Below, piece by piece: positions 2,610 through 61,166 of a stretch of DNA of 64,000 nucleotides. The position numbers were made by a program, and so were the translations under genes. How positions within the stretch are numbered: position 1 is the first letter of the stretch; every line of letters begins with the position of its first letter. Source of the stretch: Eledone cirrhosa (lineage: Eukaryota); the NCBI GenBank assembly GCA_964016885.1, contig OZ024752.1:45694001-45758000 (forward strand). Direction: 5' to 3'. The notes beneath the pieces were generated by a model. The model was not told the origin of the DNA. It made no database searches and was given only the letters and a program-made list of their open reading frames with translations.

Positions 2610-2748
2610 CAGAGCTTACTGATGATTTCTCCCGAATGAAAAAGTTCTAGTCTTGTAGAAGCCATTCCTATATTAAATATTTATATTCTGCTATGTATTG
2701 AGTACTTTACTTACTGTGGTTACCCCCGATTGAACCCGGGATAAACTT
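2610..2748 (+). mobile_element. Hammerhead-bearing Penelope-like mini-element, family A (degenerate ribozyme), in (TA)n
   Basis: CTGATGA(2619)-TTTC TCCC GAAT-GAAA-AAG TTCTAGTC TTG-TA-GAAGC, then family-A tail GTATTGAGTAC...GGTTACCCCCGATTGAACCCGG; TA tracts on both sides. Confidence 0.75.
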
Positions 2749-3432
2749 ATATATATATATATATATATATATATATATATAGAGAGAGAGAGAGAGAGAG
2801 AGAGAGAGAGAGAGAGAGAGAGAGAGATAATGACTGAAACAAATTGTTAGCCGGTGTCACACGATCTGTGTCCCTCTTACACAACTGCACAAACATGTGC
2901 TATAATGACGTGCTATTAATAAGGACATTAAACTTTCTCGAGAAGCCAGATAATGATAACATTTATTTAATGTGAAACTTAATGTAAGAACCTCTTACTC
3001 AATTTATTTATAATTTTTATGAGCATCATTTTAGCTATAACTAACAAAAATGATTGATCTTAATTTGTTATTTATTTTATGCAAATATATGGTACCGATA
3101 TAATCGATTTTGGAGGATAAAAAATTTACATTTTTCTCTACTAAGAGTAAACACGTTCATTGGTTTTCGTTATTGACTGTAGTTGATGTGTTATTATAAT
3201 ACTCTGATATGGAGGGTTAATGCTATCAAAATGCCACAAATGAAAACATTTGACGGTATACTGTTCTGTTTGTATTTCAAATATTTCTGCCTAGTTTTAA
3301 ATACTGAATCGTGAAGTGATAGCAAAGATCAAATACTGCAATTGTTTGGCAGAAATTTCAATATCGTTCAGGCAGACATTTTTATCGTAAGTTTTGGTAT
3401 TTCTTACGATTGGAGTACTTTTTACACAAAAT

Positions 3433-3590
3433 ATTCTTTAGAAATCATCAGGAATCTCATTCCTGATGATTTCTAAAGAATGAAACAGTTCTAGTCCTGT
3501 AGAATCTCATCTATATTAAAACTTTTATACTCTGCAATGTATTGAGTACCTTACTTACTGTGGTTACCTCCGATTCAACCCGGAATAACG
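3433..3590 (+). mobile_element. Family A mini-element with 23-bp 5' fold-back inversion
   Basis: 3433-3455 is the reverse complement of 3459-3481; family-A tail ends at (TA)n. Confidence 0.8.
3459..3505 (+). ncRNA. Type I hammerhead ribozyme motif (family A), predicted cleavage after GUA at 3501
   Basis: ATTC-CTGATGA-TTTC TAAA GAAT-GAAACAG TTCTAGTC CTGT-A-GAAT: helix I ATTC/GAAT, helix III ACAG/CTGT. Confidence 0.75.
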
Positions 3591-4634
3591 TACTATATAT
3601 ATATATATATATATATATATATATATATATATATATATATATATATATATATATATCATAAATCATGTCTTTAGAATCATCAGATAATAAAATATATACT
3701 ATTTCTTCTTCTAATTAGCATAATTAACCATATAAAAAATCAATTAGAACAAACTATAAGAATAAATGCTCTTATGGAGAAATCTCCGACAAATAACCGA
3801 ACGTAGCCTCTTCGCGGCGGCCCCAATCGAGTATTTATCCAACATTTCGACAGCATGTAGAAACTGACTAAATATACCACCAACCATACACAATTAGGTG
3901 TAAAATTAAGCTTAGAAGAAATGTGCACATACCGTAATATATATATATATATCCCTCCATATATATAATGTTACCACCGATTGAACCTGGATATTTATAT
4001 ATATATATATTGTTATACTTTGTGTGTGTGTTTATTTATACACATATCCCTACATATATATATATATGTGTGTGTGCGTGTGTGTGTGTGTGCGTGTGTG
4101 TGTGTGTGTGTGTTTATTTATATACCTATACATGCTTCCATATATATATATGGAAACAATATCCTACGGCATTTAGTTATGTTTGGTTTCGCTAATCTGA
4201 TAATCGATAAAATATGTAGACAAAATGTACCAATATAAACATCTAGAACATAATCCTGCTTGTCAAGATGTGTTCTAATATGACGTCGTTCTCAAAGGGA
4301 AATAACCGTGTTGATCTCAATTGGTATTCTTATCTGTTGAAGGTAGACAAGCTGACACTTTAACAGAAAGGGTGGCGAAGAAGAATTAACAAGTATTAAC
4401 TAGAGGTTGTTGGTGGTGGAGGTGGTAACTTAGCGATAGAACTGTTCTACTTGATATTTATTATATTATTATTACCAGTCTATGTTATCTAAATCCTTAA
4501 ATTCAATAACATTAATCCACTGTCTAGCCTATTGTTATTAAAATTTCTAAGGAAATGAAACGTTGGGAAAAAATTTAATATAAAGAGTGGTATGCTCATG
4601 CGCGGAGATGTTATGAAATAGCCGATAAATTTGT

Positions 4635-4815
4635 CAATCGACTTTCGTTAAATTGGACCGAGGAAACAATGTTTCCTTTGGTCTCTCCAATTGCTAATAC
4701 TATCTATCGGTCGCAACTCCAGGTAGAAAGAGCAACGTGAAATAAAGTGTCTTGCTCAAGGACATAACGCATCGCCCGGTCCAGGAATCGAACACACAAC
4801 CTCACAATTGCGAAT
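4635..4815 (-). mobile_element. tRNA-headed SINE family 2 (CORE-like body), partial
   Basis: Reverse of GTCCTTGAGCAAGACACTTTATTTCACG plus tail shared with 7638-7840 and 25465-25535. Confidence 0.7.
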
Positions 4816-5404
4816 CTAAAATAGCTTATAAAATAGAGTGGAGATCCTTAAAGACGGAAAAAGGTGTTGCCGTAGGCGGCCGCTATGAGGAATCGAAACC
4901 CAATGTGAAGCCGGTATCTTAAAATCAACCCCATGTGTCATGAAAAATATATTATCTTAGTTCTTTCTTATGTATTTCTTTCATTGTCTAGGATATCGAA
5001 CTATCATTGTTTCTTTTCTTTACTCTTTTATTCTTTTACCTGTTCCAGCCATCCGGCTGAGGCCATTCTGGGGCACTGCCCTTGTTCATATTTTCTTTTT
5101 CATTTCCATGTATTTCACCGAATCGTTTATTTCCAAGCATTCACGTTTGTTCTGTTGCTTTCAGGTAAAATCCCAGGTAGAAAATGGATGAATGCCTAGA
5201 AATATCAGCAACAAAATGGTGTCTAAATTAGGCGGAAGGCCAGAACTGTTGAGTAAGTGATTGCTATTTTATTTTATCGTTCCCAGAATGTTTATTTTGG
5301 CAGGATTTAAACCCAGAAGGTAAAGATCTGGAAGAAACACGACAAAGTATTTCATCTGGCACTCTAACAGGTTCACCAATCAGTTTGTCTCGCATCTAGA
5401 GGCT

Positions 5405-5605
5405 CATCAGGTGTTTAGCCCAGTTTCTTTGGCGTTAAGTGACTGAAAGTATAAGACTTCCCCCTGGACAGGTCGCCAGTCCATTGTAGGGTTAAACACC
5501 CAGCTATTGCTGCTGGTACTTCTTTTCAGTGAGTATACTGGAGCAACGTGAAATGAAGTGTTTTGCTCAAGAATACAACACACAACACAGTCCAGGAATC
5601 GATCC
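5405..5605 (-). mobile_element. SINE family 2 body/3' part
   Basis: Reverse of TTCTTGAGCAAAACACTTCATTTCACGTTGCTCCAG...GGACTGGCGACCTGTCCAGGG. Confidence 0.7.
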
Positions 5606-59604: not shown

Positions 59605-59722
59605 TAGTTCAAATTCCGCCGAGGTTAACTTTGCCTTTCAACCTTACGGGGTAGATATAATAAAGTACCAGTAATGTACTAGGATAATTGCTGGCCTTGT
59701 GCCAAAAGTAGAAACAATTATT
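59605..59722 (+). mobile_element. SINE family 1, 5'-truncated
   Basis: GTTCAAATTCCGCCGAGGTTAACTTTGCCTTTCA...GCCTTGTGCCAAAAGTAGAAAC. Confidence 0.85.
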
Positions 59723-60164
59723 AATAATTATCAATTAATGTATATCGTGCAATGCCTTTACGTGAACAATTTTTTTTAAAGTGAGGAATGACTGTGCACT
59801 GAGCCAATCCCACTCTCTGAGCGACAGTAGCTATAACCTGAAAAGAAGAAAGGATCAGCATCATCAGTAACTACTGAGCCGCAGGTTTTATGTCGGAGTT
59901 ATCCCAGTTTCCTGAGTTTTCTTCTCCTAGAAGAATTCCTGCGTAGTCAGTTTGATGATCATGTGACTTCACAGGATCTAATCAGATCCTCTGTAACATA
60001 AGAATATGTGTTCTGTTATTAATTCTGGCAATGTTACACAAATATGACACTCCCAAGTATAAATATATATATATATATATATATATATATATATATATAT
60101 ATATATATATATATATATATATAAAATATATATATAAATAAATATATATATATATACATATGAA

Positions 60165-60331
60165 ATAAAGGTTAAGACAGAGGTTATATAATCGTATTTA
60201 ATAAATATACGTATTTCTACGACACCAATATATATATATATATATATGATCGTACATTAGCTCCATAGTGGTGTCATAGGAATACGTATATTTAATAAAT
60301 ACGATTATCTAACTTCTGTGTTAACCTTTAT
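60165..60331. mobile_element. Fold-back element (family K), ~63-bp inverted arms, with 3' half of a hammerhead-like motif
   Basis: 60165-60227 mirrors 60269-60331; minus strand GAAA-T ACGT A-TA. Confidence 0.65.
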
Positions 60332-60753
60332 ATATATATATATATGATTTTATAAAACACACACACACACACACACACACACACACACACACACACACAC
60401 ACACACACACACACACACACACACACACACACACACACACACTGGTGCCATCACAACGTCTTGACAATGATTTCATAAAGTTAATAATAAATAATATAAA
60501 ATTGTCGGCTAAGCTTTCAGATTTTATAAAGAATTTCACAGTTGGTTGAACTGGCAATAATGTAGTTGGGATAGGTAACTACTGAATAATGTAGGATATT
60601 TAGGGTTGGATATGATAGGGGTGGGGATTGGGGGGTGGGAAGTGGTGTGGGGGAGATGGGGGGGGGGTAGGCAGAGGTGGTGGCTCTTGTTAGAGATGGA
60701 GGTGGTGTTAGTGGTGCGGTTGGTGTTAGCTTCATTCAAAGGAAATCATCTGG

Positions 60754-60802
60754 CTTTCCTGATGATTTCCTTTGAATGAAACAGTTCTAGCCCTGTAGAA
60801 GG
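60754..60802 (+). ncRNA. Type I hammerhead motif (family A) with 20-bp upstream fold-back (60731-60750)
   Basis: CTTTC-CTGATGA-TTTC CTTT GAAT-GAAACAG TTCTAGCC CTGT-A-GAAGG; helix I differs in sequence from other copies but still pairs. Confidence 0.8.
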
Positions 60803-60973
60803 CATTTCTATATAAAATGATATATATATATATATATATATATATATATATATATATATATATATATATATATATATATAGGTATACACATATATTTGTG
60901 TATACGCCGTATGTATATATGTATATAAATATATATATATATATATATATATATATATATATATATATATATA

Positions 60974-61166
60974 TAGGAACGAGTAGGACCCCGACGGCTG
61001 AGCTCAAGCCGTTTCGACGGCTAATTCTGTCCAGAATTAGCCGTCGAAACGGCTTGAACTCAGCCGTCGGGGTCCTACTCGTTCCTATTACCCACTCTAC
61101 TAACCTAAGTATTGAGTACTTTGGTGCGTTATGGTCCATCTGGTTCCTTACCACATTTCCTTAGTT
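60974..61166 (+). mobile_element. Family F fold-back mini-element in (TA)n
   Basis: Near-perfect palindrome 60974-61087 centred on AATTCTGTCCAGAATT plus AAGTATTGAGTACT tail. Confidence 0.85.

Follow-up and report, generated by a model that had tools for sequence, protein, structure and literature searches.

Hammerhead motifs and TA-repeat islands in the window

The window analysed here is a stretch of 64,000 nucleotides (nt) of Eledone cirrhosa DNA, positions 45694001-45758000 of contig OZ024752.1 within a 3.0-Gb assembly (GCA_964016885.1), rich in AT and in microsatellites and with dispersed repeats that resemble those of an octopod cephalopod. Among its (TA)n tracts lie short islands, many of them with two arms arranged head to head, that carry complete or partial type I hammerhead ribozyme motifs (Table 1). 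We consider it very probable that these islands are the 5'-truncated 3' ends (a pseudo-long terminal repeat, pLTR, with or without a tail) of Penelope-like elements (PLEs) from at least five families that carry Hydra-clade motifs, inserted into (TA)n, likely by target-primed reverse transcription from both cut strands.

A strict descriptor of the type I hammerhead (CUGANGA, stem II of at least 3 bp, GAAA, stem III or a palindromic loop, UH, and stem I of at least 4 bp), applied to both strands, found nine complete motifs, each with the CUGANGA/GAAA/UH core and three helices; those beginning at 15995 and 52661 lie on the minus strand. These include every one of the nine coordinates listed in a first-pass annotation, made from the sequence alone. 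Two hundred dinucleotide shuffles of the 50,350 unmasked bases gave a mean of 0.03 motifs (maximum 1), roughly 300-fold below the observed frequency, and five decoy cores put in place of the hammerhead core had no match in the window. The bare CUGANGA word occurred 39 times, compared with 20 +/- 4 in the shuffles.

Self-BLAST of the window resolved multi-copy families A (7 islands), B (4), C (3) and D (7 and a fragment), one insertion of family E, and single inverted-repeat islands; the letters are our own and may differ from those used earlier. Additional stubs at 12400, 14030, 25660, 47982, 50582, 54230, 60168 and elsewhere have relatives in loci fetched from the genome (L numbers), several with CUGANGA cores, and their inclusion brings the count to at least ten families. 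Each of the seven family D islands holds only the 3' half of the hammerhead. The adjacency to (TA)n tracts claimed at first is also borne out, since a tract lies within 15 nt of 21 of the 22 islands of families A-E, whereas among 32 copies of other dispersed repeats this holds for 3 (p 8e-11, Fisher test). Two family D palindromes are stacked in one TA tract at 36649-37121, and stacks of different families in a single tract are common in the fetched loci (e.g., L014, L020 and L025).

Parent elements and clade assignment

Like the first-pass annotation, which saw no reverse transcriptase (RT) or GIY-YIG open reading frame (ORF) in the window, a tblastn search there with three parent ORFs gave no match. 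All five families could be followed through the rest of the genome, and the PLE reading proposed earlier is right and gains in precision, each family leading to its own Hydra-type RT and GIY-YIG ORF. In a position-ordered sample of family A, many copies reach far in the 5' direction and two continue past the tail into an ORF, which is intact over 713 aa in L090 and L092 and has YRDD and YIG motifs. A search with a family A RT fragment gave 150 scored matches at 91% identity or more, and for 20 of these the frame is open over 758 aa, two of the 20 containing a stop within the matched part. The parent ORFs of families B (L161, L162, L176), C (L315, L339, L346), D (L166, L167, L169, L170) and E (L335-L337) are 40-48% identical to that of family A. 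By alignment, RT and, at the C terminus, a GIY-YIG domain share a single ORF, as in endonuclease-bearing (EN+) PLEs, and a homologue search returned 1417 proteins at E <= 1e-20, the best 120 of them at 39-53% identity.

Several features point to the Hydra clade of C-terminal EN+ PLEs, a group of (TA)n-inserting, hammerhead-bearing elements that includes Hydra-1_Obim of Octopus bimaculoides, Hydra-2_Amil and Penelope-n_HM (Craig et al. 2021, PMC8557442). As described for that clade, DKG is replaced by DKT (3 of the 3 ORFs covering that region), the linker has the form CxCx5C (4/4), CxxC (4/4) and CxH (3/4) flank the E and N residues of the EN, and the families insert into (TA)n. At the RW-basic position families A and D have RWR and family B has RWI, the Hydra motif being RWK. 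A conserved CCHH finger is absent from the GIY-YIG core, with one Cys in B, D and E. The type I hammerhead of the clade lies near the 3' end and often reads CUGAUGAU...UGAA and contains a U.U pair, which family A shares (PMC8557442). The Naiad clade, with its N-terminal EN and without a canonical hammerhead, does not match, since here the EN is C-terminal and hammerheads are present; an early guess at the Neptune clade, made from the Cys linker, was dropped because the published description of the Hydra clade fits.

These are new families of a known kind, with element type, (TA)n target and hammerheads already in print. The hammerhead listed for Hydra-1_Obim differs from all five described here, so that they are other families, the likeness to its protein being judged by eye. 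The Hydra clade is described as comprising 'a small number' of families, and the portion of PMC8557442 consulted gives no comparable copy load; in the main text of a paper on Octopus vulgaris repeats the terms 'hammerhead', 'Hydra' and 'palindrom' are all absent. The present families contribute their scale, parents that are young and intact, and evidence on the mode of insertion that can be counted.

Some parents have features of their own. The family A 3' untranslated region (UTR) holds about 2 kb of TATG/TA microsatellite-like sequence in both arms (L061:3700-7200), so that the element itself would spread microsatellite DNA, its own target included. In the family B ORF (L176:1571-3994, minus strand), some 65 aa rich in Asn, Thr and Pro are inserted between RT thumb and Cys linker, which brings to mind the N-rich inserts in Penelope elements of Adineta (PMC3846280). 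PLE ORFs with RT and GIY-YIG that are not of Hydra type (L171:6114-8036, L172:4224-5569 and L347:3356-5401, all minus strand) indicate that several PLE clades coexist in the genome.

Insertion architecture and the tail hairpin

In every family, copies stop at one of two fixed 3' positions, the short end or the tail end, which lies 60-90 nt beyond it, and (TA)n follows each. TA followed the 3' end in 23 of 30 copies of family A, 27 of 30 of B and 18 of 30 of D (an undercount, as the D reference ran into TA), compared with a background of 8%. The hammerhead lies either upstream of a tail leading into the RT and GIY-YIG ORF, in tandem copies, or downstream of the ORF, in long copies. Partial tandems (pLTRs), 5' truncation, an inverted copy and a one-sided tail, all marks of EN+ PLEs, were seen.

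From 97 minus-then-plus loci, hand-picked from the first rows on contig C1, 93 pairs could be scored (four lacked a second anchor): exactly one arm was tailed in 86, both in five and neither in two (p 2e-18 relative to independent arms). Inversion centres span 5 nt to 6.5 kb; preferred places are stem I in family A, the interior of stem II in family D and, in family B, a CATATG palindrome some 100 nt upstream. The two arms of a pair belong to one subfamily, with a median identity between arms of 97.5% compared with 93.2% across loci in family D and of 99.3% compared with 89.6% in family B, and with an identical core heptamer in both arms of all 22 family D pairs.

The tails share the word WGAGYRC, and a complementary RCTC 6-32 nt upstream forms a small hairpin with it. 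RCTC precedes the word in 51/59 cases in A, 32/35 in B, 9/12 in C, 73/76 in D and 12/13 in E, as against 16/213 background sites, and family C pairs GCTC with GAGC where the other families use ACTC and GAGT. The hairpin begins a few bases past the short end, between the two end points, and we infer that it may be the binding site of the element's protein. Inspection by eye suggests the same shape at the end of the consensus of Hydra-2_Amil, a coral element (PMC8557442).

Hammerhead structure and core variants

Five unrelated stem sequences share one hammerhead topology. In family A, a 3-bp stem II is closed by U.U in 67 of 68 distinct motifs; across these related copies, stem I swaps A-U/C-G/U-G and A-U/G-U/G-C, stems II and III are near-invariant and loop II is free. 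In family B, stem II is long and the stem III region, 8 nt in length, is a palindrome of the dimer type, and for family C the predicted minimum free energy (MFE) structure is the hammerhead itself. The palindrome at 52578-52773 is predicted to fold into a single hairpin (-115.9 kcal/mol). That these hammerheads cut RNA is only predicted, and minimal PLE hammerheads are reported to cleave poorly in vitro (PMC4209133).

Long copies of family D have the core YUGANAA: counted by eye, the first 100 listed were all A8, with 63 U3 and 37 C3, and a narrower G8 pattern had 36 matches. The U3-A8 core is published for Schistosoma PLEs (PMC4209133). In a midpoint-rooted tree of 50 copies with positions 3 and 8 masked, where paired arms are not independent and some rows have inverted flanks, C3-G8 and then C3.A8 copies are basal to the youngest group, which is rich in U3-A8, and a U3.G8 subfamily stands apart; the order of core changes read from it is suggestive only. 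The amplified C3.A8 mismatch class and the U3.G8 subfamily set family D apart from the PLE hammerheads described there (PMC4209133).

Genome-wide load and annotation

Exact patterns matched the genome 20,859 times for the family A core, 21,619 for the B 3' half, 32,281 for the D 3' half, 9,956 for the E 5' half and 1,078 for one C subfamily, a sum of 85,793 with no control matches for any; the family D 5' core pattern had 2,275. The descriptor was passed by 23/30 listed copies of A, 30/30 of B, 15/24 of E, 9/24 of C and 22/30 of the D 5' core, and extrapolation from these rates, which come from the first 24-30 listed copies per family, all at the start of contig C1, gives about 45,000 complete motifs genome-wide. 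Published loads of PLE-type hammerheads are about 2,000-9,000 per genome (PMC4209133), and axolotl retrozymes reach up to 120,000 copies (bioRxiv 10.64898/2026.07.22.740005; PMC7229834).

The density of one insertion per 2-3 kb that had been projected from the window holds locally but not for the genome as a whole, where the five patterns have about one exact match per 35 kb. The window contains 13 exact matches compared with 1.8 expected from the genome counts, a roughly 7-fold enrichment that is in part circular, since copies in the window supplied the patterns; the 10-kb flanks contain one each. The related claim of a large, under-annotated ribozyme load stands as a count of sequences that Rfam does not see; as a load of ribozymes it is overstated, the short palindromes being predicted to be locked in a hairpin. 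Searched at its gathering thresholds, Rfam gave no match on five loci; on two short stretches it gave no hammerhead above 15.1 bits, and the 150 listed of its 621 matches to the whole window were microsatellite or microRNA noise. Its models fail to detect these motifs, and they score the palindromes as microRNA-like hairpins.

Catalogue of islands and other features

Table 1. PLE-derived islands and inverted stubs in the window (window coordinates)
Feature	Positions	Strand	Description
Family A stub	2610..2747	+	tail and decayed hammerhead core (at 2619), very small 5' inversion, flanked by TA on either side
Family A stub	3433..3589	+	short inverted arm, complete hammerhead 3459-3505, tail running into (TA)n
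Family B tail-only stub	9498..9535	+	between microsatellites
Family B head-to-head	13527..13866	.	minus arm tailed, cut in stem II; plus arm longer, tail-less, complete hammerhead 13758-13828
Family B insertion	15881..16176	-	minus arm with tail and complete hammerhead 15995-16065; short remnant on the plus strand
Family A (older subfamily) head-to-head stub	16510..16671	.	cores decayed
Family C stub	20493..20660	+	complete hammerhead 20493-20570, 11-bp stem I, tail
Family C-related head-to-head stub	20743..20918	.	partial cores
Family C head-to-head	28497..28780	.	minus arm with tail and mutated core; complete hammerhead 28676-28746 in the plus arm
Family A stub	31590..31709	+	3' half of hammerhead and tail
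Family B minimal two-arm stub	32185..32247	.	within long (TA)n
Family D palindromic stub	36649..36850	.	hammerhead 3' half in both arms; minus arm tailed
Family D palindromic stub	36929..37121	.	plus arm tailed
Family D palindromic stub	40412..40605	.	plus arm tailed
Family E head-to-head	41960..42372	.	plus-arm hammerhead 42275-42330, stem II shorter than in other copies; minus arm tailed
Family D palindromic stub	42568..42755	.	minus arm tailed
Family D-related single arm	43761..43814	+	hammerhead 3' half
Family A (older subfamily) head-to-head stub	46730..46949	.	decayed cores; mixed CA/TA repeat flanks
Family D-related single arm	47827..47884	+	
Family A palindrome	52578..52773	.	minus arm with tail and hammerhead 52661-52709; plus arm without tail, with hammerhead 52713-52765; stem I is the joining point
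Inverted stub, further CUGAUGA-bearing family	54230..54575	.	relatives in fetched loci
Inverted stub, further family	60168..60328	.	genomic relatives have CUGAUGA upstream and GAAA with palindromic loop
Family A stub	60731..60818	+	complete hammerhead 60753-60803, short inverted arm
Family D palindromic stub	60976..61165	.	plus arm tailed

A different type of minimal core resembling a hammerhead (CUGANGA, a stem II of few pairs, GAAACGU) occurs at 12400-12560 (minus strand) and 25660-25800 (plus strand), in repeats with relatives in L051, L319, L325, L020 and L346 that are likely the ends of other PLE clades. At 21468-21556 and 21785-21873 lies an 89-bp inverted repeat whose arms are 96% alike, with a 228-bp TA/TG/CA spacer; a genome search with this island matched only its own two arms, so that membership among the PLEs is unsupported. 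Minisatellite arrays occupy 1-558 (97-bp unit), 14471-15038 (81 bp), 30337-31500 (58 bp) and 34277-34558 (72 bp), the 81-bp unit matching part of a dispersed repeat family. The commonest repeat (20 segments), resembling a short interspersed element, has one internal part tandemly expanded, in 77-bp and 66-bp units, at 23339-23974 and 33766-33961. A 131-bp repeat is present in two inverted copies (59774-59904 and 63780-63910) and presumably represents something like the end of an RTE-type long interspersed element.

Discussion

How would such insertions arise? In the mechanism we favour, the element protein would nick both strands of a (TA)n tract, after which synthesis on the element RNA would start from one 3'-OH at its tail end and from the second at its short end. 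The two complementary DNAs (cDNAs) would often stop early, frequently within the hammerhead stems, and would then be joined head to head. In family A, the predicted point of hammerhead cleavage in a tandem transcript lies some 140 nt upstream of where the ORF starts. Most of the short stubs are probably dead on arrival, and the motif would be sequestered if a palindrome were transcribed.

The closest contender keeps the same elements and derives the inverted arm from self-priming or fold-back of one cDNA, or from an antisense template. There is precedent for it in Adineta vaga Pen2a, which has inverted, 5'-truncated pLTRs with a one-sided tail and whose head-to-head palindromes were interpreted as self-priming on an antisense template (PMC3846280). 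It would also account for arms of a single subfamily and for the many junctions within palindromes or hammerhead stems. Fold-back, however, requires the tailed arm to contain the other, and among the 37 pairs that could be oriented by their spacer (49 lacked an orientable one) the tailed arm was longer in 17 and the tail-less arm in 20. In those 20 pairs the tail-less arm cannot template the tail, which makes two priming events the simpler reading and argues against the self-priming published for Pen2a; we regard fold-back as unlikely. Pen2a and the legend of Fig. 2 in PMC8557442 otherwise agree with our loci in head-to-head arms, of which one is tailed, and palindromic junctions, although the Pen2a tails, at 30-40 nt, are shorter than those seen here (PMC3846280).

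A more distant alternative is that the islands are non-autonomous mini-elements or retrozymes with fixed units of 150-350 nt, as the first-pass annotation implied in speaking of mini-retroelements. Animal retrozymes stem from PLE pLTRs (bioRxiv 10.64898/2026.07.22.740005), every family has junction hot spots, and the top-scoring relatives of the 52578-52773 palindrome have nearly the same centre. From those relatives we had at first read a palindromic mini-element of fixed length, but that sample was biased by its query: position-ordered samples gave the widely varying centres reported above, 5' ends vary as well, long copies enter ORFs, and the tail may stand on either side. ORF-less tandem arrays of A-E were absent from the sampled loci and from the 150 of 209 tandem repeats listed for the window. 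The mini-element reading is thus largely refuted for A, B and D, and overall we hold it to be quite improbable. Animal non-LTR retrozymes share the type I hammerhead, low GC and high copy number; they are ORF-less head-to-tail repeats of 150-450 bp, whereas the stubs here are single or head to head and have ORF-bearing parents (PMC7229834; bioRxiv 10.64898/2026.07.22.740005).

Scarcely credible, finally, is the idea that a DNA transposon targeting TA left the inverted islands as miniature inverted-repeat transposable elements (MITEs), or that they are artefacts of the assembly, their hammerhead-like motifs being due to chance: inverted arms and TA flanks do look MITE-like and the 21468/21785 island is alone in the genome, but the arms are unequal in bearing one tail, centres vary, motifs far exceed the shuffles, arms differ by 1-5%, and short-read contigs from two runs of unrecorded type, possibly of the assembly's own sample, span the centre of the family A palindrome at 52711. 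RT-bearing parents rule out for A-E the MITE class, whose marks are equal terminal inverted repeats, a fixed length and the lack of a parent with RT.

Returning to truncated Hydra-motif PLEs primed on both cut strands, several observations weigh against this interpretation. The head-to-head pairs were, as mentioned, hand-picked, and arms of the same subfamily would be expected from fold-back too or from later gene conversion. Junction microhomology was scored in 32 of the 36 loci given, with 1-9 nt of overlap in 14, one blunt junction and 17 unassigned, by a method that halted at substitutions. Pfam gave GIY-YIG on the parent ORF at E 2e-4, below its cut-off, and no RT match. Family A has two Cys between its GIY and YIG equivalents, the second unconserved, where the Hydra clade is said to have none; moreover, tandem units of 3.3 and 3.9 kb in family B (from motif spacing) and a repeat-rich 3' UTR of about 2.6 kb in family A (L061) make both longer than the usual Hydra element of under 3 kb, and family D has its variant core (PMC8557442). 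For isolated family A and D motifs the MFE structure is not the hammerhead.

On the other hand, priming on both strands fits the in vitro behaviour of the Poseidon PAc protein of Anolis, which cuts and extends both strands of AT-rich targets from two RT start sites that define a tail, is predicted to dimerise and does not need the hammerhead (Frangieh et al. 2024, PMC11167929). PAc belongs to another clade, and its start sites lie within the ORF, whereas here they lie upstream of the ATG (PMC11167929). A literature search on twin priming in inverted Penelope insertions found nothing relevant. The motifs themselves resemble those of other metazoan PLEs, including Cercyon of Schistosoma mansoni: mostly solo motifs from truncated elements, dual motifs on opposite strands 100-700 bp apart, an extra nucleotide after A9, a palindromic loop 3 and U3-A8, but here at about 45,000 per genome by extrapolation, beyond the range given there (Cervera and De la Pena 2014, PMC4209133).

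Taken together, these observations allow a wider reading that we offer as possible rather than probable. A protein dimer bound to the conserved RCTC...GAGY hairpin of the tail may prime symmetrically on the two strands of cut (TA)n, one cDNA beginning from the tail end and its partner from the short end, and the cDNAs may stall and meet in the hammerhead stems. The outcome would be one of the densest animal hammerhead loads per base reported, along with thousands of perfect palindromes, and in family D the 3-8 pair would have moved from C-G through an amplified C.A mismatch to U-A, that is, mobility without need for an active ribozyme.

Given the failure of Rfam models and their microRNA-like scores, such motifs and palindromes will be misannotated or left unannotated. 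Beyond annotation, the genome bears on how PLEs form their inverted one-tailed insertions and on what their hammerheads do. Its five families, whose young copies number in the tens of thousands, combine intact ORFs, two fixed end points, a shared hairpin and a natural series of core variants, and this combination makes both twin priming and the need for cleavage directly testable.

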